Origin: a virus
Length of the DNA stretch: 64,000 bases
Direction: 5' to 3' (one strand)
Virus record (IMG/VR): IMGVR_UViG_3300027659_000009
Location: 1 to 64,000 of that record
This document shows, in pieces, positions 1,146 to 64,000 of the stretch. The translations under genes and the position numbers were made by a program. How positions within the stretch are numbered: position 1 is the first letter of the stretch; every line of letters starts with the position of its first letter. The notes beneath the pieces are model-generated. The model searched no databases and was not told where the DNA came from. It saw nothing but the letters and a program-made list of their open reading frames with translations.

Positions 1146-4100
1146 ATGGCAAAAAATAAAAGGATAAAAATTGCAGGATACGCTAAAAGGATATTTTTCA
1201 ATGACAACATTGAGTATAGGAATTTTAGTCCTGACTTAGTAGGGTTTCAACTTACTAGTGAAGGTGGTACAACGCTATTCACTAATGGTAATTTCTCAAT
1301 ATCAGTAAATTTAGATCCAAAGCCTAATGTATTATTTACTCAGGGAACTAAATCTAAATTTTTTACGTTAGATGATATTGTATCTGAAAATAGTCCACAA
1401 TTAGAAATACAAAAAAATTTAAAGACAAAACTTAATTTAGATTTAACAAATCCGATAAGTTATGTGTGGTATGGTTCGTCAAAAGAATTAATAAGAGCAT
1501 CCTTAATTGAAATACAAAATAATTATCCTGCTGCAATTTATGTAGACAATAAAGTTGGTAGTGTAAGTGGTAATAATATTACCGATTATGTTTATGATTT
1601 ATCGGCAGATGAATCTACATTTAAGGTAAATAGTAATTTCTTTGTTAATCCATATAATATAAAATATACTGTAGACGCTCAATTTACGCCTACGGAACAA
1701 ACGGAAAATCCTTTAAGAAATTTTACATTAAAACATACTTCTTATGTGATTGAACATAATGGTATTTTAAAAAATATAAAAAGTATAACACCTGCAACAC
1801 AAAAGACTAACTCTGAAATAGAATTAGTTGTTGATGGCAATCCTTTCCCAGAATTAACTGGATTAATATTACCACAAATATCTTTTTTAAGTGCACCAAT
1901 AGATGCACCAATACCGTATTTTATAAAACCGAATGAATCTGAAATAGAAAAATTCTTTTCAGGATTAAATGATTTACAATTAAATTTATTAGATAGGAAT
2001 ATATATCCAAAATATACATCTCAGTTTTATAGTACACAACCAACCGACAATGGTGTTTTACTAACAAGTAAGAAACTATTTAATTTCCCAATCTCAGAAG
2101 ATGGATATAACTTAAACTTTTTTGATAGTTACTATATTGCTTTCTTAGATAAAATGAATCAGTTAGGTGATGATTTAGATAATTCTAAAACTGACATAAT
2201 TGTAAGAAAATATACTACTGAGGCGGTAAATAGTTTTGATACCGTGCCAATGGCGGACGGTAATGATTATATTTTAAATGGTGAAAAGGCGACTAAATTA
2301 TTAAGAATATATGGTGTTGAATTTGATTATATTAAAAAATATATAAATGGAATTAAATTAGCACACGTTGTCACTTATGATAAGAAAAATAATGTACCTG
2401 ATGTATTAGTCAAAGATTTGGCGTATATGTTAGGTTTAGATCCTGTTACATTTATTACTGATAATTCGTTTAGTAAAATGTTTTTACCGAGTAATGGGGC
2501 TGGTGAATTTAGTGGTACTTCTACTAATATGACACAAAGTGAAATAGATATTGAACTTTACAGAAGATTGATATTGAATATTGCTTGGATATGGAAAAGT
2601 AAGGGTACTAGAAAAGCAGTAGAATTTTTGTTTAGATTTATTGGTGCACCAGAATCTTTAGTTAATTTTAACGAATACATTGTAATGGTAGATAAACCTT
2701 TAGATGTAGAAGAGATAAAAAGATTATTGTATATTTACACTGGTGAAGTAAATTTAGATATTATACCATACGATGAAAATGGATTTCCTTTACCACCGAT
2801 AAATGGTGATTTAGTTATTACAAATTATATTGATCAAACTACTGGACAATTAGTAGAAAATGATTATACTGAAATGTATTTCCAAAAAGCGGGAGGATGG
2901 TATAGAGAGACTTACGGTTCTAATGTAGTAACTAATTTGGACGGTAATAACCCACACGTTGGTCCATATGATGGTGGTAGTGAATACTTACAGTATTTTA
3001 GTAGGTGTTTTATACCTAACTTTAATTCAGAACCAACAGTCACTGTTACGGCAACAACTTTAGGTGAAAATTACTTTTTAAATTATAATCACGGTTTATT
3101 TAATAGTGTACCATCAGGTACCAGTGAATTTTATACTACTCAGTTAACATTTAATCCAGCGATTAATACATACCAATTCATAGAAGATTGTGTAGATGTT
3201 AATTATAGTATTATAGAAACACCATTACAGAACGATGGTAAAACAACATTTCAACAACAATTTGAGACTGCAGAACAAGCGTACTTAGATTATCAACAAC
3301 AAATACTACAAAATAGTTATTTGTCTTATTCACCTGAATGGTATGTAATTCAAAATAACTATATGGTGGCACAAAATAATGCGTTATTAGAAGTGTCATC
3401 AGAGAATTGTGATATTAACCAAACATTACAAATTTGTGTTAATGAAATCCCACGAGACAATTTTCAAATAGACTGTTCATCTTTAAGTGCGATAACTTGT
3501 GATCCGTATATATATTTTGTTAATTCTGGTGGTACTAAAGTATCATTTAATGAATTTGCTTCTTGTTGTACATCAGAAGGTGGTAAATATGTGACATATA
3601 CTAATGAAGAATGTAGAGTAGTAGAGTATTGTTCTAAGATAGCACCTTGTGTAGGGGAACCAGTGAATACATTACCTAACGGTATTATTGTATTTGATTT
3701 AACTAATAATACTATGCCTACTAACGTTTATTCATTTAATAATAGATGTTATCAACTAACATCTAATGGACAAACATACTTTTTTGGTTCAACATCATCA
3801 TCATCTGTAACGCCACAAAATTATTTAAATGCGTTAAACCCAAATGCGCCTGGAAGCCAATTTACAATATTATTTACACAAGTTTCGTGTCAGTTATCTA
3901 CTATAATTAGTAGTCCAGAATGTTGTGCGTGGTATGGATATAATTACCAAATAATAGAAGAAAACGATATAAGTTATATTGTTTGTACTTCAGGTAGTTC
4001 TTTAACTACAATACCACCAATAATAGATGATATTATTGGTTGGTTAGATGGGCAATTAAGTGGTACTACATCTACATCTGGAACCACAAGTCCTTCAGGA

Positions 4101-9330: not shown

Positions 9331-12237
9331 ATGGCTAGTATAAGAGGTAAAATAGAAAATCCTGTATATCTTTCAGCAAATGTGATAAGTGAAATAGAAT
9401 CACCTGTGGATGTAAGAATATCTACTGATGTGCAATATAATGCCTCATCAGTATCCACATTCATTGAAACTAAGACGGCATTATTTTTACCAACAGACTT
9501 ATCTAACGCTAAAAACTTATATGTTTTGAGTAATCCTCAAAGTTATGGGAATACAATTTTTTCTAATCTTTTGACGGAAAAATTTTTATTATTTTCTTTA
9601 TCGGGTAATAGTAGTGATAGTAATATGACTATTTCGGTAGAACCTAATAATAATTTATTATATATAGATGGTGGTAAAAAATATAGTTTACTATCTAGTA
9701 GAAATGAAAGTAAGAATTTTGGTTGGGAACCTGTAAGTAATAGATACCAATACTCACACATAGAAAGATCAGACTTTGATAGTTTTGATTTTCCACAAGT
9801 TACTGTAAGTGGGACTAGGAAAATACCGACAACTACTGCAGACACTCTTTGTGGTCCAGTTACTTATACAGGATATACATATGATAGGTTAAATTATAAT
9901 TGGTTTTTTGGTACTAATGCGGGTATCACATTTAATCCCATACAATCTGGTGGTACACCCACATCTATTAGTGGGTCAGTAATTTCTCAGGAAGGGGTAT
10001 CTTCAATATCTAACATAGAGGGTAGATTATTATTCTATACAAATGGTGAAACGGTATATACTAGTGGTAATACTGTAATGGTTAATGGGACAGGACTAGC
10101 AAGTTCTGGTACATCAACACAGTCATCAATAATAGTACCTAGACCTAACACAAATAAGTACTATATATTTACAACAGACTATAATGGATCACCAAATGGT
10201 TTAGAGTATTCTATTGTTAATATGGACTTACAAAATGGAAATGGTGAGGTAGAAACAAAAAATATTAAATTAATTAATACACCTATAACAGAAAAAGTAA
10301 CATCTTGTCTTCATAGTAATGGCGTGGATTATTGGGTTATCGCACACACTAGTGGAAACACCAACTTCTATTCCTATTTAATTACTCAAAGTGGTTTAAG
10401 TGGACCAATAGTAACTAGTATTGGTAGTACACATAATACTGCTAGAGGGTATATGAAAACTTCACCAGATGGAAATAAATTAGTTTCCTTACTTTATGAT
10501 GAGGATATTGTCGATATTTTTGATTTTAATTCTTCTGCAGGTACATTAAGTAATTTAATAACACTTACAGGATTTTCATATAATGTTGGACCTTATGGTT
10601 TAGAATTTTCATCAGACTCTTCTAAATTTTATGTTTCTGAAGGTGCAGGTGAAGAAATTTATCAGTTTAATTTATCCTATACTTCTGCAACAGAAATAAC
10701 TGAAAATGTTATAGAAATCACATCTTTAAGTGGGGCAAGTTTAGGGGCATTACAAATGGGACCTGATGAAAAAATATATGTTGCCGATTATAATAAATCT
10801 TATTTACATATGATACATAGACCAGATGGTTTAGGAGTGTTATGTAATTTTGAAGAAAATGGGTTTAGTTTAACTACATCAGGTGTAACTGGTACAACAT
10901 CCAGTTGGGGGCTACCAAATATAGTTACGAATAAATCATTATCACCTGATAGGTTTGTATACCTTATTAATAGTGGTAGATTAGGTTATTTATTTAATGT
11001 TTTAGTTAATAACGTTAATGATGTTGTAGAACCTAAAAAATTATCATACTATGGCGAAGTATATAAATACGATCAAATAAATAGTGGATTTACTAGTTCA
11101 TCGTTATATAATTTTAGTATTGGTTATGAAAATTTAACAGGTAATACTGGTAATACAATTTTCTTACCTTCAATTAGTTTAGGTGAAGGTGAATTTCTAA
11201 TTAAATCATATTGGCAGTATGACGTAAATACTTTATTAGCGAAACAACAACAAATTAGAAAAAATAGTTTAGATACATATAAAAGAGGTATTCTTTATGG
11301 TTTATATTATCCTGAAACGGATTGGTATTTTATTAGTATGTTTGAGGCAGAAAAACCATTGTTTAATAATTCGGTGGCACCAGCCCCCCCTAGTATAGAT
11401 TCATTAGTAGTTCAAACCGTATTTACCGATAGTAGTACTACACAATATAGTGTGAATGGGTTATCTGACCCAATAGTTAGTTACAATGGTTCAGTTTTAG
11501 CCAAAGGTATAGAATATAGTGCAAATACAACGGCTTCAACACCTTATGTACAATTACTGTTCACACCATTAGATAAACAAATATTGACTTACGCGTATGT
11601 AGATAATGGTACATCTAATAATTTGTATGGAGATGTATATAGTATTAGTACTACAATAACTAGTGGTGCAACTGGTACTCAAACAACAAATGATAGAGTT
11701 TTTTATAACATAACAGAAAGTAAATATGAATTTTATCTACTATCGTCACCTGCAAGTGATATAGTCCTTTCAATTAATGGTTCAATTTTATCAAAAGGTA
11801 TAGAATATTTAGTGTCAAACTCTAATGATAGAAGAATTATTTTAGAAGAAACGTTAAATGTTACTGACATTATAGAAGCATTTTATGTACCTAATTCAAG
11901 TGTAAACGGACTAGTACCAACCAATACTCCTATAATAAGTTGGTCAATAAATTCCTCACCTTTAAGTGTAAATGGAAAGTTTACCATAGAATTTGCGGAT
12001 GTAAACGACACTAATTTCCAAAATATATTATATAGTGGTGTAACTGACTATATTTTGGGTGAAAAAACATATATAAGTTTAGTAACATTGACAAATGCGG
12101 TGGCTGGTGATAAATTTATATATAGGATAAAAAATGAAAAATTTTATACCCCTATTATGGGTGAAGTCATATATAGTTTTATATATAGTGATGTTAGTAA
12201 AATAGAAATACAATATAATAGTGGAAACGCATATTAA
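9331..12237 (+). CDS. Putative tail/receptor-binding protein with Bacteroidota-type beta-propeller domain
   Basis: NWFFGTNAGITF, QSSIIVP, DYWVIAH, GYMKTSPDG, YGLEFS, GALQMGPDEKIYV, GLPN motifs; two NGSxLxKGIEY repeats near the C-terminus. Confidence 0.6.
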   Translation: MASIRGKIENPVYLSANVISEIESPVDVRISTDVQYNASSVSTFIETKTALFLPTDLSNAKNLYVLSNPQSYGNTIFSNLLTEKFLLFSLSGNSSDSNMTISVEPNNNLLYIDGGKKYSLLSSRNESKNFGWEPVSNRYQYSHIERSDFDSFDFPQVTVSGTRKIPTTTADTLCGPVTYTGYTYDRLNYNWFFGTNAGITFNPIQSGGTPTSISGSVISQEGVSSISNIEGRLLFYTNGETVYTSGNTVMVNGTGLASSGTSTQSSIIVPRPNTNKYYIFTTDYNGSPNGLEYSIVNMDLQNGNGEVETKNIKLINTPITEKVTSCLHSNGVDYWVIAHTSGNTNFYSYLITQSGLSGPIVTSIGSTHNTARGYMKTSPDGNKLVSLLYDEDIVDIFDFNSSAGTLSNLITLTGFSYNVGPYGLEFSSDSSKFYVSEGAGEEIYQFNLSYTSATEITENVIEITSLSGASLGALQMGPDEKIYVADYNKSYLHMIHRPDGLGVLCNFEENGFSLTTSGVTGTTSSWGLPNIVTNKSLSPDRFVYLINSGRLGYLFNVLVNNVNDVVEPKKLSYYGEVYKYDQINSGFTSSSLYNFSIGYENLTGNTGNTIFLPSISLGEGEFLIKSYWQYDVNTLLAKQQQIRKNSLDTYKRGILYGLYYPETDWYFISMFEAEKPLFNNSVAPAPPSIDSLVVQTVFTDSSTTQYSVNGLSDPIVSYNGSVLAKGIEYSANTTASTPYVQLLFTPLDKQILTYAYVDNGTSNNLYGDVYSISTTITSGATGTQTTNDRVFYNITESKYEFYLLSSPASDIVLSINGSILSKGIEYLVSNSNDRRIILEETLNVTDIIEAFYVPNSSVNGLVPTNTPIISWSINSSPLSVNGKFTIEFADVNDTNFQNILYSGVTDYILGEKTYISLVTLTNAVAGDKFIYRIKNEKFYTPIMGEVIYSFIYSDVSKIEIQYNSGNAY

Positions 12238-44687: not shown

Positions 44688-44716
44688 TTGACTTTTTAGG
44701 AAATTGTAACTATAAT
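44688..44716 (+). promoter_or_regulatory. TTGACT-N17-TATAAT promoter of the DUF2828-ncRNA unit
   Basis: Seen directly 28 nt upstream of ATG. Confidence 0.7.
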
Positions 44717-44744
44717 TGTAGTCAGAAATTAAAAAAGTTTTATT

Positions 44745-46166
44745 ATGAGCGACTCTCAAACAATTTTGGTAGAAAATAAAGGTAACGTAACATTAACTGA
44801 TAATGGTATGGTTACAAACAACACCACATTGAATAAATGTGTAGATTTGTTTTTCTCTATTGGATCGATGAGAGGAAAATCAAAAGATAAAGTAGTTAAA
44901 GTTTTCGAAGAAGCCTTTAATGAAAATCCTTTGGTTGCGTCTAAAGTCTTATTTTGGGCTAGAGACGTTAGAGGTGGGTCAGGTGAAAGAAAAGTCTTTA
45001 GAGACGTTATCTCATCCTTAATCACCAACTCACCACAAACTATTAGAAAGAACATTGCTTTAATACCAGAATTTGGTAGATGGGATGATGTTTTAGTTTT
45101 ATTTGGTACAGAGTTAGAGGACGATATGTATTCACTTATTAGAACGGCTTTAACAAACGGAGACGGTCTATGTGCCAAATGGATGCCGAGAAAAGGTATC
45201 ATCGCTAACGGACTTAGAAAATTGTTTAAGGTTACACCGAAACAATATCGAAAGATGTTAGTGGAACTAACTAATGTTGTGGAGACTAAGATGTGTGCTA
45301 GAGATTGGGAGTCAATTGATTATTCTAAACTTCCTTCTCTCGCATCATCTAGATATCAGAAGTCCTTTAAAAGAAACGATTTGACAAGGTATGAAGAATA
45401 TAAAACTGCCTTAGTCGATGGAACTGCAAAAGTTAATGCTGGTGCACTATACCCATATGACATCATAAAATCTATGAATATGGGTGGTGACGATGTTGTT
45501 AATGAGAAACAATGGGAATCATTACCTAATTGGATGGAAGGTTCTGAAGAAAGAATTTTACCAGTTGTTGATGTTTCAGGATCTATGGTTTGTGAGGTAG
45601 CGGGTAATCCTAACCTAACTTGTATGGATATTGCAATATCGTTAGGTATGTATATTTCAGAAAGAAATACGGGTAACTTTAAAGATGCGTTCATCACATT
45701 CTCTGAAAATCCTGAATTACAATACCTAAGAGGAAGCCTAAATGCAAGACTACACCAATTGAGGAGAGCAGAATGGGGTATGAGTACTAATTTAGAAAAA
45801 GTGTTCAGTCTAATTCTAACACAGGCAAAAAATAATAATATTACGGAGGAATTTATGCCGACTAAGATATTAATTTTGTCAGATATGCAATTCAATCAGG
45901 CGAACAGAAGGGATAGTTTGGGGGCACAATCTATGATTGAAGAAATGTATAGTGAGGCAGGGTATAAAGTACCTGATATCGTATACTGGAATTTAAATGC
46001 GAAAGGTGGGAATTTCCCAGTTGAGTTTGATAAAAATGGTACTGCATTAGTATCGGGATTCAGTCCGTCAATTCTTAAATCTATATTAGGTGGAAAGAAT
46101 ATGTCGCCAGAATCAATACTGATGGAAACTATTAATGATATACGATATAGTTTAGTTACTATATAA
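44745..46166 (+). CDS. DUF2828 family TROVE/Ro60-like protein with C-terminal vWA (MIDAS) domain
   Basis: ARDVRGGSGER, IPEFGRWDD, CAKWMPR, VETKMC, VDVSGSM, ILSDMQF, VYWNL, SGFSP. Confidence 0.85.
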   Translation: MSDSQTILVENKGNVTLTDNGMVTNNTTLNKCVDLFFSIGSMRGKSKDKVVKVFEEAFNENPLVASKVLFWARDVRGGSGERKVFRDVISSLITNSPQTIRKNIALIPEFGRWDDVLVLFGTELEDDMYSLIRTALTNGDGLCAKWMPRKGIIANGLRKLFKVTPKQYRKMLVELTNVVETKMCARDWESIDYSKLPSLASSRYQKSFKRNDLTRYEEYKTALVDGTAKVNAGALYPYDIIKSMNMGGDDVVNEKQWESLPNWMEGSEERILPVVDVSGSMVCEVAGNPNLTCMDIAISLGMYISERNTGNFKDAFITFSENPELQYLRGSLNARLHQLRRAEWGMSTNLEKVFSLILTQAKNNNITEEFMPTKILILSDMQFNQANRRDSLGAQSMIEEMYSEAGYKVPDIVYWNLNAKGGNFPVEFDKNGTALVSGFSPSILKSILGGKNMSPESILMETINDIRYSLVTI

Positions 46167-46179
46167 AACGTTCTTTGAA
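46165..46179 (+). promoter_or_regulatory. boxA-like antitermination element
   Basis: AAAACGTTCTTTGAA, identical to 60690-60704 before the tRNA cluster. Confidence 0.6.
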
Positions 46180-46184
46180 GATAT

Positions 46185-46346
46185 TTGTGGTAGTAAACGA
46201 ATCATTGCAGCAAAATTTAAAACTATAAATTTAACTACAATAGATAGGGCTTTGATAACCCACATAACTACATGGGTGTAAACCGTGAAAGCGGAGGAAC
46301 CACTCAGGGTTATGAGAAAAAGTGTCAGACGATTCCGATACCACAA
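46185..46346 (+). ncRNA. Structured ncRNA 1 downstream of DUF2828 (Y-RNA-analogue candidate)
   Basis: Terminal stems TTGTGGTA/TACCACAA and GAATC/GATTC; CAGCAA motif; CCGT-GAAA-GCGG tetraloop hairpin; homologous to next element. Confidence 0.7.
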
Positions 46347-46354
46347 TGTTATTA

Positions 46355-46675
46355 GGTGTAAAGGGTTGGGGGTTATCGAACTCCCTTTAAGTCCAATAAA
46401 CGAATGGTTTCTGCAACTTTAAAAACTACAAAAACAAGTTCAGAAGGGGTTTTACCACTTTACTTCGATAAAAGTATAAAGTGGACGACCATAGGTGAGT
46501 TAAAGTGGGTGTACCCCACACTCTAGGTCGTAAAACATACCTCTTGTTTATCTCATGTGAAAAAGATAGTTGGATTTGTCTCAACTAAAAAAACAGACAC
46601 CCAAACCTATATGGGTTAAAAATGTGGGGGTGATACTATATCACTTAAAAAAAATAGGATCACCATTCCGACACC
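46355..46675 (+). ncRNA. Structured ncRNA 2 downstream of DUF2828
   Basis: Terminal stems GGTGT/ACACC and GAATGGT/ACCATTC; CTGCAA motif; many internal helices. Confidence 0.7.
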
Positions 46676-46681
46676 GAAATT

Positions 46682-46710
46682 AAAGAGGGAAGAGAAATCT
46701 TCCCTTTTTT
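46682..46710 (+). terminator. Intrinsic terminator closing the DUF2828-ncRNA unit
   Basis: AGGGAAGA-GAAA-TCTTCCCT + T-run. Confidence 0.85.
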
Positions 46711-53547: not shown

Positions 53548-53915
53548 GGGGGTGTATTGGCTTTGACTTCTCGTAAGAAGAATAGGCGTAAGCGTGTCGT
53601 GGTAGAGCGTTAATCTAAAACAAACAATAGTCGGCAACGATACAAAAATGGGCTTAGCCCTAAACGAAAACATTCTTTTGAATGGTACTGTAGGTACAAT
53701 TGCAAAAGAAGAGGTTGTATTCGCCTAATCGAGTAATACATACAGGTTATTATCTTTTTGAACCTTTATAAATAAGAAGACTGAGGATTAGTTGTTAGTA
53801 AACCGAACAGTGTAATAAGGGAACTGTCTATTTTGTCAATTTAGAAAAATTGACTACACACGTAGAAATCCGTTTGGACATAAGAAGGACGGGGGTTCGA
53901 AACCCCCCACCTCCA
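53548..53915 (+). ncRNA. ssrA: tmRNA (one-piece, no encoded CCA), predicted tag (A)GNDTKMGLALNENILLNGTVGTIAKEEVVFA*
   Basis: 5' GGGGGTG-TATTGGCTTTGAC; 3' GAC-GGGGG-TTCGAAA-CCCCC-CACCTCC-A; G3:U70; AATAGTC|GGC resume context at 53633; stop 53726-53728. Confidence 0.93.
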
Positions 53916-53916
53916 C

Positions 53917-60215: not shown

Positions 60216-60632
60216 ATGAAAAAATTTTTTAAGAGATTATGTAAAAGAATCTATGTGAAGTATACTTTATGGATACATTACAGAGCCTTAGCCCCAAAAG
60301 GGAAGAAGACTCAGAATGAGGCTATTTGTAATGCCATCTGTAGAAAGATGATATCACACAAAGATTCTAAATTTATGATTGCCCCTCTATCTGAGAAAAG
60401 GTACATTAAAAACGCAACACTTAATTTGTTTGTCGTATTTGAGGATCGTCAGGTTAGTATAACTAATCACGTTTACCATTATGATGTAAGATTATGTGAA
60501 AGAGATTGGTATAAACTTATTCGTAGTTATAACGAAAAGACTGAGGATCTTAGAATGGGTTATGAGAATGAGATTAAATCTCAGATAGTTCATTCTTTGT
60601 CTAAAATATTAGATAAAATATCGGAAAAATAA
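60216..60632 (+). CDS. Hypothetical protein
   Basis: Start moved downstream of promoter to MKKFF. Confidence 0.6.
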   Translation: MKKFFKRLCKRIYVKYTLWIHYRALAPKGKKTQNEAICNAICRKMISHKDSKFMIAPLSEKRYIKNATLNLFVVFEDRQVSITNHVYHYDVRLCERDWYKLIRSYNEKTEDLRMGYENEIKSQIVHSLSKILDKISEK

Positions 60633-60689
60633 TTATCAAACCTATTGTTTTTCTGAAAAATAGTAGTTATTATTGTAAAAGAAAAAAAG

Positions 60690-60704
60690 AAAACGTTCTT
60701 TGAA
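60690..60704 (+). promoter_or_regulatory. boxA-like element before tRNA cluster
   Basis: AAAACGTTCTTTGAA; weaker copy GTTCTTTG at 60888. Confidence 0.6.
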
Positions 60705-60727
60705 TAATATTTAAACCAACGCAAACT

Positions 60728-60799
60728 GCTGCCATCGTCTAACGGTTAGGACCTATGGTTTTCATCCATAAAATCGGAGTTCGATTCTCCGTGGCAGTA
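60728..60799 (+). tRNA. tRNA-Glu(TTC), no encoded CCA
   Basis: GCTGCCA/TGGCAGT acceptor; TATGG-TTTTCAT-CCATA; CGGAG-TTCGATT-CTCCG. Confidence 0.92.
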
Positions 60800-60806
60800 C
60801 AAACAT

Positions 60807-60879
60807 TGCGGGATAGGGAAGTTGGTAGCCCGCTAGGCTCATAACCTAGAGGTCGTAGGTTCGAATCCTGCTCCCGCTA
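60807..60879 (+). tRNA. tRNA-Met(CAT), initiator-like, no encoded CCA
   Basis: T1:T72 mismatch, purine11-pyrimidine24, CTAGG-CTCATAA-CCTAG, GTAGG-TTCGAAT-CCTGC. Confidence 0.9.
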
Positions 60880-60949
60880 CTAAAATAGTTCTTTGTTTTA
60901 TTGGTTATTACTTTTGATTAGATAAAGTTATATATCATCTTTTAAATTT

Positions 60950-61021
60950 GGCCCCATAGTTCAACGGATAGAACAGTGGTTTTCTAAACCTCTAATCCAA
61001 GTTCGATTCTTGGTGGGGCTA
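60950..61021 (+). tRNA. tRNA-Arg(TCT), no encoded CCA
   Basis: GGCCCCA/TGGGGCT; GTGGT-TTTCTAA-ACCTC (one mismatch); CCAAG-TTCGATT-CTTGG. Confidence 0.9.
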
Positions 61022-61113
61022 CTAATTACTATGACGAATCCTCCACTAATAATGGGGAATTTTTATTTATAAACATTATTATAATGTGTATACTTATAAA
61101 AAAAACAAAAACT

Positions 61114-61611
61114 ATGAAAAAATTAAAATTACTACTAGTGGTTCTACTACTATTGATCACAACTAAAACATTCTCACAAAATACTTACTTTACCCTTTAC
61201 ATTCTTGGTGCAACCGATTGCCAGTACTCCATTACAGGAAATTGGATTGATACGGTAGGACAACCACAACAAGGGTCTTTGTCCTTTGCTGCTGGAGACA
61301 CATCTTCAACCTTTCAAGATATATGGTATTGTCAAGTGGAGTCAACCAGTACTACGAGTATCTTATCAATTTGTGTTGAACCAGATACACTATGTAATTG
61401 CCCAACGGTTTGTATTCAACAATTACCAATTACACAAGGATCAATTACAATTCTGTTATGTGATAGTATTGTAGGAGTTGAAGAACAACAAATTTTGTCA
61501 TTAATGGATAACAAATACTATGATTTATTTGGAAGAGAAATTAAAGATATATCAAAATACCCAATTAATTCTTTTTATATTAAGAACGGTAGAAAATATA
61601 TTAAAGAATAA
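61114..61611 (+). CDS. Secreted Cys-containing protein with T9SS-like C-terminal sorting domain
   Basis: Signal MKKLKLLLVVLLLLITTKTFS|Q; C-term VGVEE..YYDLFGREI..FYIKNGRKYIK. Confidence 0.65.
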   Translation: MKKLKLLLVVLLLLITTKTFSQNTYFTLYILGATDCQYSITGNWIDTVGQPQQGSLSFAAGDTSSTFQDIWYCQVESTSTTSILSICVEPDTLCNCPTVCIQQLPITQGSITILLCDSIVGVEEQQILSLMDNKYYDLFGREIKDISKYPINSFYIKNGRKYIKE

Positions 61612-61671
61612 TACATTACACAAATAAAATAATAACTAATCCTACCTTGACAACAAAAAAATATTTTTTTG

Positions 61672-61700
61672 TTGACAATTAAAATAAATTTAGTTATAAT
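61672..61700 (+). promoter_or_regulatory. Consensus TTGACA-N17-TATAAT promoter
   Basis: Exact consensus. Confidence 0.75.
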
Positions 61701-61718
61701 TGAATAAAAAATAAACTT

Positions 61719-62348
61719 ATGGAATTATTAAAATCGTTAGAGTGGAGATACGCCACCAAAAAAATGAATGGGGAGAAAATCCCACAGGATAAATTAGAAA
61801 GAATCTTAGACGCAACAAGATTGGCACCAAGTTCATACGGACTTACACCATATAATGTTATTGTGGTAGAGGATCAAAAATTAAAAGAAGAGTTACAAGG
61901 GGCATGTTACGGACAAACACAATTAAGTGAGTCATCCGCAGTACTTGTATTTGCAACGTGGGATGAGGTTACAGAACATTCTGTAGAGAACTACATTAAT
62001 GAGATTGCAAAACAAAGAGAAATCCCTGTAGAGTCATTAAATGGTTTACAAGACATGATGAATGGATCATTAACCAACATGTCACATGAACAAAAGATTT
62101 CTTGGGCTCAGAGACAAGCATACATCGGATTAGGGTTCGCATTAACGGCAGCAGCAATAGAAGAAGTAGACTCAACACCAATGGAAGGATTTGTTCCTGA
62201 ATCAGTGGATACTGTTTTAGGTCTACAAGAATTAGGATTAAAATCGGTAGTAGTTCTTCCATTAGGATATAGAGATACAGAGAATGATTATTTATCAACA
62301 CTAAAGAAAGTGAGATGGGATAATGATAAGTTCTTTATTAGAAAATAA
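61719..62348 (+). CDS. NAD(P)H-dependent nitroreductase (NfsB-like)
   Basis: WRYATKKM, LAPSSYGL, QAYIGLG, DSTPMEGF, LPLGYR, KKVR. Confidence 0.93.
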   Translation: MELLKSLEWRYATKKMNGEKIPQDKLERILDATRLAPSSYGLTPYNVIVVEDQKLKEELQGACYGQTQLSESSAVLVFATWDEVTEHSVENYINEIAKQREIPVESLNGLQDMMNGSLTNMSHEQKISWAQRQAYIGLGFALTAAAIEEVDSTPMEGFVPESVDTVLGLQELGLKSVVVLPLGYRDTENDYLSTLKKVRWDNDKFFIRK

Positions 62349-62354
62349 AAATTT

Positions 62355-62428
62355 AGTTAGTTAGATGGCGTGTTGGCATACGCACCCGATCATAAGGGAG
62401 ATAATGGGTTCGATTCCTGTGCTGACTA
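62355..62428 (+). tRNA. tRNA-like element/pseudo-tRNA with defective anticodon arm (CAT in loop)
   Basis: AGTTAG../GCTGACT-A acceptor, GCGT/ACGC D-stem, ATGGG-TTCGATT-CCTGT T-arm, only 3-bp CCC/GGG anticodon stem. Confidence 0.55.
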
Positions 62429-62486
62429 CGCAAAAAACATTGAACTGAGTTTCCTTGCTGCAAAGTGGGTTTTACAAGTTCAACAT

Positions 62487-62640
62487 AGTCAGGTGGTGGA
62501 ATGGTAGACACATAGTGACACGCACGGCAGCCTTGAATAAGTGCATTTTGAAAAGGCAATGCGAATGATGAAGAACACTACCTCACGGTGCGTAGGTAAA
62601 ATTCAAAGTGTTCATACAGGTTCGATTCCTGTCCTGACTA
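62487..62640 (+). ncRNA. 154-nt tRNA mimic with greatly expanded anticodon/variable region
   Basis: AGTCAGG/CCTGACT-A acceptor, Leu-type D-arm GTGGAATGGTAGACAC, ACAGG-TTCGATT-CCTGT T-arm, ~100-nt structured middle. Confidence 0.7.
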
Positions 62641-62641
62641 C

Positions 62642-62734
62642 AAACACATAAACTTCGGTACCCGTACCGCTGACGATGGGCTAAGTAATATACAATTCCG
62701 TACTGCGGGGAGTAGAATGCCGAAGAGTGTGTTT
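62642..62734 (+). ncRNA. Unknown structured RNA
   Basis: AAACACAT/GTGTGTTT and CTTCGGTA/TGCCGAAG closing stems around a GC-rich core. Confidence 0.5.
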
Positions 62735-62758
62735 ATAAAAATAAATAAAAATAAAAAT

Positions 62759-62911
62759 ATGAGTGATAAAAAATTTGTAGAAGTTTGTGTAGGTATCGGA
62801 ATGAATCAGTTTTTTCCTGAATATACATTAATAGAAATACCTAATGATGTGGTAGTGGAAGTTAAAGAAAAAAAAGTTAGGAAAACTAAAAAGAAAGAAG
62901 AAAGTAAATAA
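62759..62911 (+). CDS. 50-aa hypothetical protein
   Basis: MSDKKFVEVCVGIGMNQFFPEY...; start moved downstream of the RNA element. Confidence 0.5.
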   Translation: MSDKKFVEVCVGIGMNQFFPEYTLIEIPNDVVVEVKEKKVRKTKKKEESK

Positions 62912-62921
62912 TTTTAAACAT

Positions 62922-62949
62922 AAGGTGATTTTTTATCACCTTTTTTTTT
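62922..62949 (+). terminator. Intrinsic terminator
   Basis: AAGGTGAT-TTTTT-ATCACCTT + T-run. Confidence 0.8.
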
Positions 62950-62977
62950 GTTATATGAAATATTTTACCTATATTTG
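62947..62977 (+). promoter_or_regulatory. Bacteroidota-type promoter
   Basis: TTTG-N19-TATATTTG. Confidence 0.7.
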
Positions 62978-62993
62978 TCTTAAATAAATTCAT

Positions 62994-63728
62994 ATGCCAA
63001 AGATATTTGAAGTAGGTGGTTGTGTCAGAGATGAATTGATGGGTGTGGAAACAAATGATATTGATTTCACATTTGTCTTAGACAATTTGGATAGAACCGT
63101 AGAAGAAGGATTCCAAATAATGACTGATTGGTTATTACATAAGGAATTTACTATTTTCTTAAGTACACCTGATTGTTTTACTATTAGGGCAAAGTTTCCT
63201 AAAGATCACATTCATTCTGGTTTGGTTGCAGATTTTGTTCTCGCAAGAAAAGAGGTGGGGTATGTTGAAGGAACAAGAAAACCTATTTTGGAATTGGGTA
63301 AGTTGGAAGATGATTTGGTTCGTAGAGACTTTACGTTGAACGCATTGGCGAAAGATGAAAACGGTTCTATTATAGATTTGTTCGATGGTATTTGGGCATT
63401 GGAAAATAAACTATTGTTAACTCCATTGGACGCAAAGGTAACTATGTTAGATGATCCATTAAGGCTGATTAGGGCATTTAGATTTTCTATCACTAAAGGT
63501 TTTGAGATATCACCTACGATTTGGGAGACTTGTTTAATGGATAGTGTTGTAGATAAATTAGAGTTGGTAGTATCAAAGGAAAGAATCAGAGAAGAACTTT
63601 TAAAGATGTTAAAACACGATACGTTAAAGTCTTTGGAATTGTTTTCAAGAATAAAAATACTTAACCCTAAAATTTTGGATATTATGTTTGGTGGGGATAT
63701 GTGGTTAAAACCAACATTTGAAAAATAA
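62994..63728 (+). CDS. Minimal class II tRNA nucleotidyltransferase (CCA-adding enzyme family)
   Basis: VGGCVRD, DIDF, RRDFTLNAL, DDPLRLIRAFRF, VSKERIREEL. Confidence 0.9.
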   Translation: MPKIFEVGGCVRDELMGVETNDIDFTFVLDNLDRTVEEGFQIMTDWLLHKEFTIFLSTPDCFTIRAKFPKDHIHSGLVADFVLARKEVGYVEGTRKPILELGKLEDDLVRRDFTLNALAKDENGSIIDLFDGIWALENKLLLTPLDAKVTMLDDPLRLIRAFRFSITKGFEISPTIWETCLMDSVVDKLELVVSKERIREELLKMLKHDTLKSLELFSRIKILNPKILDIMFGGDMWLKPTFEK

Positions 63729-63732
63729 TTAT

Positions 63733-64000
63733 ATGAAAGAGATACTTAAAAAATATGAAGAGGATGGATTGTTGTTCAGACAATTCTATCAGACATTGGA
63801 TTTAGAGATTTGGAATTATTCTGAAAAGGTTCAATACGAAGGACTATGGGATGACATCACATTAATGTGTCGTGGATTAGTCACAAACTCTAATGGTGAT
63901 ATTGTGGCAAGACCATTCCGTAAATTCTTTAACATCGAAGAGGGTAGACATACACCTACAGAACAGTTTAATGTCTACGAAAAAATGGATGGTTCTTTGG
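63733..64000 (+). CDS. T4 Rnl1-like RNA ligase (5' part, truncated by window end; not in ORF track)
   Basis: Manual translation ..WNYSEKVQY..MCRGLV..IVARPFRKFFN..YEKMDGSL (motif I KxDG). Confidence 0.88.
   Translation, partial: MKEILKKYEEDGLLFRQFYQTLDLEIWNYSEKVQYEGLWDDITLMCRGLVTNSNGDIVARPFRKFFNIEEGRHTPTEQFNVYEKMDGSL

Follow-up and report, generated by a model that had tools for sequence, protein, structure and literature searches.

Predicted tRNA-shaped RNAs of a large phage that carry other sequence in place of the anticodon arm

Why would a phage keep the acceptor stem, T arm and elbow of a leucine tRNA while giving up the part that reads codons? The question was raised by two elements near the end of the analysed window (64,000 nt, positions 1 to 64,000 of IMG/VR record IMGVR_UViG_3300027659_000009). 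A first-pass annotation had described them as a pair of tRNA mimics at 62355-62428 and 62487-62640, with a related acceptor but a broken or hugely expanded anticodon arm. Our analysis confirmed that observation, with a corrected start for the first element. The interpretation attached to it was only partly supported: the core inference held, but the four functions suggested fared differently. In addition, the two elements proved to be members of a family of hundreds. Homologous loci in related phage contigs are designated below by L and a number. The locus is organized as follows:

61672..61700 (+), a perfect sigma-70-type promoter-like site (TTGACA-17-TATAAT, 12 of 12 matches), the likely start of a unit holding the nitroreductase gene, both tRNA-shaped RNAs, the third RNA and a 50-aa ORF; this is a consensus match only.
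61719..62348 (+), a nitroreductase-family ORF (Pfam PF00881, E 1.7e-19), with its stop codon 10 nt before element 1; in L186 the same gene is followed directly by element 2.
62359..62428 (+), element 1, a 70-nt tRNA-shaped RNA: acceptor 62359-62365 with 62421-62427 and A73 at 62428, D arm 62368-62383, CCC/GGG stem 62385-62387 with 62396-62398, 8-nt loop 62388-62395, T arm 62404-62420.
62440..62483 (+), a trailer hairpin (TTGAACT, 62440-62446, with AGTTCAA, 62477-62483, and an inner stem), inherited as one unit with element 1.
62487..62640 (+), element 2, a 154-nt tRNA-shaped RNA: acceptor 62487-62493 with 62633-62639 and A73 at 62640, leucine-type D arm 62496-62511, middle 62512-62615, T arm 62616-62632.
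62642..62737 (+), a third structured RNA starting right after element 2 (MFE z -2.6), a separate module that also occurs before or apart from element 2 in other phages; it has 6 homologues with 3 compensatory pairs, and its outer stem is wholly replaced in L157.
62759..62911 (+), a 50-aa ORF of unknown family (no Pfam family; homologue in L002); its true start is at 62759, as the ATG at 62717 lies inside the third RNA.
62922..62950 (+), an intrinsic-terminator-like hairpin with a T run, the likely end of the unit.
62994..63728 (+), a gene of the CCA-adding enzyme family (PolyA_pol head domain, Pfam PF01743, E 4e-17), 354 nt downstream of element 2.
63733..64000 (+), the start of a T4 Rnl1-type RNA ligase gene (Pfam PF09511, E 2e-8), which runs off the window.

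Element 2 has a perfect 7-bp acceptor (AGTCAGG with CCTGACT), A73, a D arm identical to that of genuine phage tRNA-Leu genes, and a perfect T arm (ACAGG-TTCGATT-CCTGT) preceded by T at position 48, with 104 nt between the D and T arms. It is preceded by ACAT and followed by CAA. Element 1 is also real; however, the homologues, which read AGTCAGA/AGTYAGG-TG-GCGT, place its start at 62359 and not at 62355. In this register, its acceptor (AGTTAGA with GCTGACT) has 6 pairs plus an A7.G66 mismatch, its T arm (ATGGG-TTCGATT-CCTGT) has 5 pairs of which two are G.U, and its 3-bp CCC/GGG stem closes the 8-nt loop GATCATAA. It has a 4-bp type I D stem, T at -1, A at -4, and C74-G75. The homologues L122, L163/L079/L166, and L195-L197 fixed the register and showed that the short middle is conserved. 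The TTGAACT/AGTTCAA hairpin, described in the annotation as separating the two elements, is present and is conserved together with element 1 in L195/L196, with a compensatory U-A to C-G change in its inner stem. The unit formed by element 1 and the hairpin is absent from L186.

Neither element was called by default ARAGORN or by Rfam, and no Rfam tRNA match was obtained for them at E up to 10. ARAGORN with the intron option gave only a weak model of element 2, a tRNA-Val(cac) with a 67-nt intron (score 104.8), and the segment 62359-62429 was called only at a lowered threshold. Of the folds offered in the annotation for the middle of element 2, TAGTG/CACTA is broken in 3 of 10 homologues and the outer pair of GCCTT/AAGGC in 9 of 10, whereas the alternative pairing GAACACT/AGTGTTC fits all the variation. 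The latter pairing has no support from covariation, because the middle is invariant. A pseudoknot ACGCAC/GUGCGU is a further possible pairing.

The elements belong to a very large and uncatalogued RNA family in uncultured phages. The exact 22-base T-arm/acceptor end was found in more than 120 IMG/VR contigs, but in only 3 places in 185,579 prokaryote species genomes (596 Gb) and in no isolated phage, which excludes chance. A blastn search of 62300-62780 against 50,697 isolated-phage records gave no match, and the 33-nt end returned only generic T-arm matches. In 1.1 Mb of related loci, 302 copies (229 distinct) were counted, with constant ends, lengths forming a continuum of 61-233 nt, and arrays of up to 11 on one strand. 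The frame comprises the 5' strand AGTCAGG (variants AGTYAGR) pairing with CCTGACT, A73 (93% of the family), and the T arm RCAGG-TTCGAWT-CCTGT preceded by U48; the T stem also occurs as AGAGG/CCTCT or GTAGG/CCTAC. About 167 unrelated middle classes are present, of which 130 were seen once. What every member keeps is the acceptor/T-arm minihelix; a strict Leu-type D arm was retained by only 100 of the 229 distinct members (44%), and some have no D arm. Most members offer no anticodon stem-loop at all. A proper tRNA-Leu(UAA) exists on the same frame in L131/L132/L156/L172, which points to the origin of the family.

The flanks of the family members are of the tRNA type. The frequencies of U-1, A-2, A-4, C74, C75, and A76 were 85, 75, 67, 100, 3, and 78%, against 72, 58, 66, 90, 1, and 73% in 278 true tRNAs of the same loci. 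U-1/A-2, N-4, and the 73-75 contact are known RNase P contacts (PMC11143913). The tRNA fold was further supported by compensatory changes in acceptor pairs 1-72 and 7-66 and in D-stem pair 11-24. The R15-Y48 pair covaries, with A-U in 84 of the 100 members with a Leu-type D arm and G-C in 5 of 5 with G15. The 19-56 elbow pair is partly restored, since U19-A56 replaces G19-C56 in 2 of the 10 distinct element 2 sequences (3 loci).

The element 2 class occurs in 13 homologous loci with 10 distinct sequences. Its middle is invariant at about 95 of 103 positions, while its D loop, T loop, and acceptor vary, and this near-invariance is retained although the element sits in at least 8 unrelated flanks, at 93–99% identity. 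Compensatory pairs were observed in other middle classes. Homology to other phages ends within 2–5 nt of the RNA ends, and the RNAs are inherited as modules. However, the folding energy of the middles alone is barely below that of random segments of the same loci (mean z -0.56 against -0.38, p 0.04), and the idea of a structured payload therefore rests on a few classes with covariation.

Taken together, the best reading, which we hold with moderate confidence, is that elements 1 and 2 are genuine, expressed-type RNA genes of a phage family descended from a tRNA-Leu, that they do not decode, and that the tRNA top half serves as a processing and stability frame, with the middle as a payload of unknown function. 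In this view, the RNAs would be co-transcribed with neighbouring genes and other RNA modules, RNase P would cut at U-1/A+1, the 3' end would be trimmed to A73 or C74, and a CCA-adding enzyme, either of the host or the one encoded by the phage downstream, would complete the end. The folded top half would protect the RNA, and the middle would be displayed as a stable payload. Membership in the family, tRNA-type flanks, conservation, and modular inheritance were demonstrated by the sequence comparisons; the processing steps, deduced from the flanks only, the scaffold role, and any accumulation as discrete stable RNAs are inferred. In addition, RNase P, RNase Z, and the CCA enzyme read shape and not sequence, and the scaffold idea therefore does not explain why the acceptor and T stems are kept letter for letter in more than 160 classes. 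No within-genome homogenization of the frame was detected that could account for it.

Attempts to connect the middles with a target, partner protein, or known RNA family gave negative results. Rfam searches of the window and of 14 array-rich loci, at gathering and E-value thresholds, matched no known family to any middle; only tRNA, tmRNA, GOLLD, and freshwater-1 appeared nearby. Neither the middle of element 2 nor the third RNA showed complementarity to the 166-kb phage record beyond shuffled controls, which speaks against an antisense or guide role, and the 229 middles matched nothing outside the family in 1.5 Mb of loci. Coding of a peptide in element 2 was rejected, since the only long frame runs through the T arm without a stop and the variable site falls on a second codon position. 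No ORF cluster occurred in more than 15 of 128 loci, the commonest being terminase, DUF932, SPFH, and RNase H-like. Sigma-70 promoters were not enriched upstream of family members elsewhere. The CCA enzyme is not obligatory for the family: it was present in 3 of 5 records and missing from a complete 322-kb phage that carries family members, and few CCA-gene neighbourhoods hold an element. Literature searches for the family found no description, and a 2026 preprint on bacterial tRNA mimics concerned other motifs.

Among the alternatives, leucylation and transcript punctuation deserve the most attention, although we consider both unlikely. E. coli LeuRS needs A73, A15-U48, G18G19, and the D/T-loop contacts, but neither the anticodon arm nor the variable arm, and truncated tRNA-Leu without both arms is still charged (PMC9976931). 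Element 2 of this window has all of these elements together with G19-C56, so the RNAs might be charged and act as a LeuRS or EF-Tu sponge, as an amino-acid donor, or in delivery of the payload to the ribosome. However, half of the element 2 class has lost G19-C56 (A56, non-G19), which is essential for leucylation, while the middle stays invariant; the strict Leu-type D arm is absent from 56% of the family, element 1 has a type I D stem, and no LeuRS-family gene was found in the 166-kb record. Obligatory leucylation is thus unlikely. Punctuation, in which RNase P and RNase Z sites separate mRNAs and small RNAs, as tRNAs do in mitochondria or mascRNA does for MALAT1, agrees with the flanks, with the position of the elements between an ORF and further modules inside one promoter-terminator unit, with modules that abut within 0–5 nt, and with arrays interspersed with small same-strand ORFs. 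RNase P and 3'-end processing, as suggested in the first-pass annotation, therefore fits, but processing alone does not explain near-invariant middles, since an incidental middle would drift and a plain tRNA would do the same job at half the length. The suggestion of decoys or bait for tRNA-targeting defences (anticodon nucleases, acceptor-end toxins, tRNA-sensing systems) was neither supported nor excluded, and remains doubtful. The CCA-adding enzyme family gene and the ligase gene form a tRNA repair kit, the RNA island differs between phages whose CCA enzyme is 96% identical, as accessory arms-race loci do, and phage tRNAs are reported to counter such defences (PMC10264068, PMC11464382). On the other hand, the middles do not resemble anticodon stem-loops, the acceptor/T-arm end was found in no host genome as a tRNA (the 3 places noted above are odd ones) and so mimics no known host tRNA, and hundreds of different middles are hard to reconcile with a few nuclease targets.

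The remaining readings are less likely still. Spread between phages as selfish cassettes by means of the constant ends, with little or no benefit to the phage, would be in line with the occurrence of the same element in at least 8 unrelated flanks, with break points at the RNA ends, with the unit-sized gain or loss between this window and L186, and with frame variants that travel with the middle and not with the genome. However, no reverse transcriptase (RVT_1) was found in 5 records, including the complete 322-kb phage, no target-site duplications were detected, no transposase or integrase partner is recurrent, and strong purifying selection on whole middles suggests use. An intron-containing tRNA spliced with the phage ligase, also proposed in the annotation, was not supported. 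Oversized tRNAs of Lak megaphages were read as intron-bearing (Devoto et al., 2019; PMC6784885) and an Rnl1-type ligase gene is next door, but the ARAGORN model scores low, no U33/R37 loop is present, and no group I or other intron family matched. Moreover, G29 of the TAGTG/CACTA stem, which lies inside the intron of the ARAGORN model, varies without compensation in 3 of 10 homologues. A YrlA-like partnership with the Ro/TROVE-like (DUF2828) protein was likewise not supported and is very unlikely. Bacterial Y RNAs reportedly mimic tRNA (PMC4201824), and a putative TROVE-like gene lies at 44688-46710, but this is 16 kb away with adjacent RNAs of its own, no YrlA match (RF02553) was obtained at E up to 10 in 60500-63100, and the family occurs in many small contigs next to ordinary phage genes. 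YrlA is closed at the acceptor-like end and opens into the Ro-binding stem, the reverse of the topology here, where the ends form the acceptor stem itself. Finally, random decay of the arms in homologues had been named beforehand as the sign of simple pseudogenes. The A.G mismatch and G.U pairs of element 1 and the rejection of both elements by default tRNA finders would agree with decay, but this reading is contradicted by the conservation of each class across many phages, the compensatory changes, the tRNA-like flanks, and the co-inherited trailer hairpin.

A more speculative possibility, improbable on present evidence but of great interest if true, is that the family is a natural tRNA-scaffold display library, a pan-phage pool of hundreds of aptamer-like RNAs presented on one orthogonal, non-decoding tRNA-Leu frame. 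A dedicated reader would recognize that frame by sequence, which would explain the letter-for-letter acceptor, and the RNAs would be exchanged between phages as whole cassettes to manipulate host proteins or defences.

The closest known relatives are RNA1 (144 nt) and RNA2 (125 nt) of phage T5, annotated in NC_005859 (misc_RNA T5s03/T5s06) as tRNA-like stable RNAs with unknown functions. They are oversized and lie in the phage tRNA region among tRNAs, small ORFs, and other stable RNAs. RNA1 has an acceptor stem, a leucine-type D arm (GCCGGAAUUGGUAGACGG), and a T arm around a long middle, and RNA2 has a T arm (GCAGG-UUCGAAU-CCUGU) almost identical to that of this family. However, the acceptor sequences differ, the middles share no sequence similarity, and the T5 genes are single genes in one phage group and not a frame shared by hundreds of different middles; they are annotated as observed stable RNAs, whereas ours are predicted only. 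In phage T4 (NC_000866), species 1 RNA (rnaC, 139 nt) and species 2 RNA (rnaD) are stable RNAs of unknown function at the end of the tRNA cluster. The rnaC ends in a canonical T arm (CCGGG-UUCGAAU-CCCGG) plus an acceptor-like 3' strand, with two long hairpins in between, but its acceptor pairs only weakly and it has no D arm; rnaD is not tRNA-shaped in our reading. Neither a shared frame nor a family of swapped middles is present in T4. The "enigmatic" tRNAs of Lak megaphages, which come from gut Prevotella phages, are also oversized tRNA-like genes of huge uncultured phages that bacterial tRNA finders reject, and their inserted sequence is identical across cohorts. They were interpreted as introns within tRNAs that have assignable anticodons; in our elements, no decoding tRNA remains once the middle is removed. 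An engineered counterpart is the tRNA scaffold for recombinant RNA expression (Ponchon and Dardel; PMC3753655). In that man-made principle, the anticodon arm of a tRNA is replaced by an RNA of interest, so that cellular tRNA processing and the tRNA fold give a stable product.

Oversized tRNA-like stable RNAs have been known in T4 and T5 for about fifty years without a function. The present family shows that the theme is widespread and highly organized in uncultured phages, with one constant top half carrying well over a hundred unrelated middles that are kept under selection and moved between phages as units. If the frame is a processing and stability scaffold, phages invented the tRNA scaffold of RNA biotechnology long ago, the family would be its first large natural counterpart, which remains to be shown, and the middles would be a large untapped set of functional small RNAs, possibly host- or defence-directed. 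T5 RNA1, with the same leucine-type build, offers a cultivable model for its function. In practical terms, standard tRNA finders either miss these genes or give them bogus anticodons, which distorts tRNA counts and codon-usage arguments for phage genomes.

With class II tRNA-Leu (RF00005), the family shares the acceptor/T-arm minihelix, A73, the Leu-type D arm (element 2), and the A15-U48 pair, but element 1 has only a 3-bp stem with an 8-nt loop in place of a 5-bp anticodon stem with a 7-nt loop, and element 2 has no conserved anticodon hairpin. Like tmRNA, it joins a tRNA top half to a non-tRNA body; however, it has no resume codon and no in-frame stop inside the RNA, and thus is not tmRNA-like in coding. 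Genes for tRNA-Glu/Met/Arg lie 1.3 kb upstream of the elements, and the phage also has a normal tmRNA at 53548-53916.

The window is the first 64 kb of a 166-kb IMG/VR phage record (about 29% G+C, judged half complete). Default ARAGORN and Rfam searches detected a tmRNA and three tRNA genes in it, but found nothing at the coordinates of the two tRNA-shaped elements. The neighborhood of these elements was composed of a nitroreductase-family gene ending 10 nt before element 1, a 50-aa ORF, a gene of the CCA-adding enzyme family, and a T4 Rnl1-type RNA ligase gene. The nitroreductase gene, both elements, a third structured RNA, and the small ORF were bracketed by a perfect TTGACA-17-TATAAT site and a terminator-like hairpin. 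The features located by coordinates were as follows.

44688-46710, DUF2828/TROVE-like gene with two adjacent structured RNAs, as reported in the first-pass annotation
53548-53916, tmRNA
60728-61022, tRNA-Glu, tRNA-Met, and tRNA-Arg
61672-61700, TTGACA-17-TATAAT site
62359, start of element 1
62440-62483, hairpin TTGAACT/AGTTCAA between the elements
62487-62640, element 2
62642-62737, third structured RNA, starting 1-2 nt after element 2
62717-62911, ORF as listed mechanically from an ATG inside the third RNA; comparison with the related locus L002 puts the real start at 62759 (50 aa, no Pfam family)
62922-62942, terminator-like hairpin

The observation made in the first-pass annotation was confirmed by direct reading of the sequence. 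Element 2 has a perfect 7-bp acceptor (AGTCAGG with CCTGACT), A73, U8 and G9, a 3-bp D stem with the loop GAAUGGUAGA, and the T arm ACAGG-UUCGAUU-CCUGU, with 104 nt between the D and T arms. Its D arm is letter for letter that of genuine tRNA-Leu genes in loci of related phages (Leu-UAG in L103 and Leu-UAA in L105). Element 1 is also real; however, its start had been placed at 62355, where the duplicated AGTT was misleading. Homologs read AGTCAGA (or AGTYAGG), then TG, then GCGT, and the RNA therefore starts at 62359. In that register, element 1 has six acceptor pairs plus A7.G66, a 4-bp D stem, a CCC/GGG stem with the 8-nt loop GAUCAUAA, and a T stem with two G.U pairs. The hairpin TTGAACT/AGTTCAA noted between the elements is present.

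A subsequent search showed that the elements represent a family rather than a pair. The 22-base end of element 2, comprising the T arm, the acceptor 3' strand, and A73, occurred exactly in more than 120 IMG/VR contigs, which is a lower bound. In contrast, it occurred in only three places in a set of one genome for each of 185,579 prokaryote species and was complete in no isolated phage. In a chromosome contig of Hymenobacter montanus BT664 (L176, 6810-6881), the 5' three quarters of a tRNA-Arg(CCU)-like gene is joined to the T arm and acceptor 3' strand of the family, which cannot pair with its own 5' end. This may be the scar of an integration or recombination event and a hint that some hosts are Bacteroidota. 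Upstream of the matches to the 22-base end, the 5' strand AGTCAGG and a D arm recurred at distances of 65 to 170 nt from the 3' end, and the middles could not be aligned with one another. A looser structural scan of the loci fetched (1.1 Mb) revealed 302 copies, 229 of them distinct, with lengths of 61-233 nt (median 104), in arrays of up to 11 copies on one strand within about 5 kb. These comprised about 167 classes of middle, 130 of which were seen once. A well-formed tRNA-Leu(UAA) on the same frame was found in four loci, as were plausible Ile(UAU) and Lys(UUU) genes. The frame therefore most likely descends from a phage tRNA-Leu. The same phages also carry full sets of ordinary tRNAs with ordinary, diverse acceptor stems. 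In addition, ARAGORN at default settings called about a fifth of family members in the scanned loci as tRNAs with arbitrary anticodons (Pro, Val, Thr, Asp, or "???"), which would inflate and distort the tRNA inventories of such phages.

The flanks of family members were compared with those of the true tRNA genes of the same loci.

Flanking nucleotides of family members and of 278 true tRNAs of the same loci
U-1: family members, 85%; true tRNAs, 72%
A-2: family members, 75%; true tRNAs, 58%
A-4: family members, 67%; true tRNAs, 66%
C74: family members, 100%; true tRNAs, 90%
C75: family members, 3%; true tRNAs, 1%
A76: family members, 78%; true tRNAs, 73%

U-1/A-2, N-4, and nucleotides 73-75 are known contact points of bacterial RNase P (PMC11143913). 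The true tRNA genes in loci L002-L193 thus encode a partial, never complete CCA, so every phage tRNA must be finished by a CCA-adding enzyme.

The fold of the frame was likewise of the tRNA type. Within the element 2 class, pairs 1-72, 7-66, and 11-24 changed on both sides and stayed paired, and elsewhere in the family the T stem appeared as AGAGG/CCUCU or GUAGG/CCUAC. Among the 100 members with a Leu-type D arm, position 15 paired with 48 as A-U in 84, and all five members with G15 had C48. In the element 2 class, all five distinct sequences with G19 had C56, whereas all five without G19 had A56, two of them with U19, which restores a Watson-Crick elbow pair. However, these changes may stem from few events; therefore, this point is supporting rather than decisive. 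What every member keeps is the acceptor/T-arm minihelix, which is the minimal substrate of RNase P, RNase Z, and the CCA-adding enzyme. In some members, namely a class of about 92 nt in L089, L103, L153, L154, and L163 and the member at L175 3650-3758, the D arm is replaced by a second T-arm-like hairpin (UCGG-UUCGAGU-CCGA or CUGG-UUCGAUU-CCAG).

A search with an 18-mer from the middle of element 2 found 13 loci holding 10 distinct sequences. Six positions varied freely (29, 44, 60, 71, 101, and 115), and one relative (L188) replaced the tip of the hairpin at 45-70 and added a hairpin in the D loop. This variation speaks against two of the helices proposed in the first-pass annotation, since TAGTG/CACTA was broken in 3 of 10 sequences and the outer pair of GCCTT/AAGGC in 9 of 10. 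The set of GAACACT/AGTGTTC, ACCT/AGGT, GCA/TGC, CCTT/AAGG, and a possible pseudoknot ACGCAC/GTGCGT was paired in 99.5% of cells; however, because these positions are invariant, the set is not proven. Other classes did show compensatory changes, such as T-A to C-G in the class of loci L094/L062.

Against other phages, homology to the window ended within 2-5 nt of the ends of element 2, and the element had at least eight different neighbors. In locus L186, the nitroreductase gene is followed directly by element 2, so that exactly the unit of element 1 plus the trailer hairpin is missing. That unit is conserved in two other loci, L195 (hairpin at about 1770-1815) and L196 (about 9380-9430), with a U-A to C-G compensatory change in the hairpin, whose role might lie in 3' processing or in protection of the trailer. 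The third structured RNA is a module of its own, recurring at 87-96% identity in loci L157, L183, L187, L190, and L193, before, after, or apart from element 2. It shows three compensatory pairs in the CUUCGG/CCGAAG helix, and its outer stem is wholly replaced in L157. No Rfam family matched it, and although it contains CUGACGA, a hammerhead could not be fitted. The RNA island also turns over between close relatives: in L002, from a phage whose CCA enzyme is 96% identical, the syntenic slot before the small ORF (3244-3477) holds five tRNAs, a roughly 150-nt RNA closed by GATAGTG/CACTATC, and a 78-nt family member with the T stem GTAGG/CCTAC and no D arm. The variable frame positions 9, 48, and 59 agreed between copies of one middle class in different phages (0.90, 0.71, and 0.70), but not between different classes in one phage (0.69, 0.59, and 0.45), which is close to background. 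Whole RNAs are therefore the units of inheritance, and the constant frame is not kept uniform by conversion within a genome.

The interpretation offered in the first-pass annotation was supported only in part. The loss of decoding was borne out, as no anticodon hairpin is present and no Rfam match was obtained even at E 10. However, an intron-bearing tRNA was not supported: the ARAGORN intron model is weak, homologs do not support a conserved anticodon stem, and the length continuum of the family offers no common exon structure. A YrlA-like RNA was not supported either, because there was no model match, the topology is reversed, and the TROVE-like gene lies 16 kb away. The conservation, the compensatory changes, and the co-inherited trailer speak against decaying pseudogenes. 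The frame of element 2 carries every element that E. coli LeuRS needs and lacks only the arms that it ignores (PMC9976931). Nevertheless, obligatory leucylation is unlikely, since 56% of the family lack a strict Leu-type D arm, and half of the element 2 class has lost G19-C56 while keeping the middle. Searches for complementarity and matches gave no support for a guide-like or antisense function, and retroposition was at odds with the absence of a reverse transcriptase and target duplications in the material examined. A phage CCA enzyme is not required, as it is absent from a complete 322-kb carrier.

We read these elements as RNAs matured by the tRNA machinery. In this view, RNase P would cut at U-1/A+1, the 3' end would be trimmed, and a CCA enzyme would complete the end; the tRNA top half would act as a processing and stability frame and the middle as the payload. 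The membership of the family, the tRNA-type flanks, the tRNA-type fold of the frame, the selection on the middles, and the modular inheritance were demonstrated by the analysis, whereas the processing steps and the scaffold role are inferred from sequence alone, without transcript data. In addition, the middles as a class folded only marginally better than random segments (mean z -0.56 against -0.38). Shape-reading enzymes also do not explain why the acceptor and T stems are kept letter for letter in more than 160 classes, which points to a sequence-specific reader, to selection for an inert "orthogonal" acceptor, or to a young and fast-spreading family.

The closest described objects are located in the tRNA region of phage T5, which mixes tRNAs, small ORFs, and several stable RNAs. 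T5 RNA1 is 144 nt long and has an acceptor, a Leu-type D arm, and a T arm around a long middle, and T5 RNA2 is 125 nt long, with a T arm almost that of this family; both are annotated as "tRNA-like stable RNA with unknown functions." The species 1 RNA of phage T4 (rnaC, 139 nt) ends in a canonical T arm and an acceptor-like strand. Devoto et al. (PMC6784885) reported oversized tRNAs with "enigmatic," perfectly conserved inserts in Lak megaphages and read them as introns. Rfam has no model for the family, and literature searches on it found no description. Thus, RNAs of this general kind are known but unexplained, and what is new is the single shared frame, the number of unrelated middles, and the cassette-like inheritance.

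Loci with arrays of the family also carried GOLLD RNA, the freshwater-1 motif, and a tmRNA (L153 8832-9239 and L101 11836-12243; L101 3348-3409 and L140 1006-1067; L101 13561-13958). This points to lake phages with unusually rich non-coding RNA islands.
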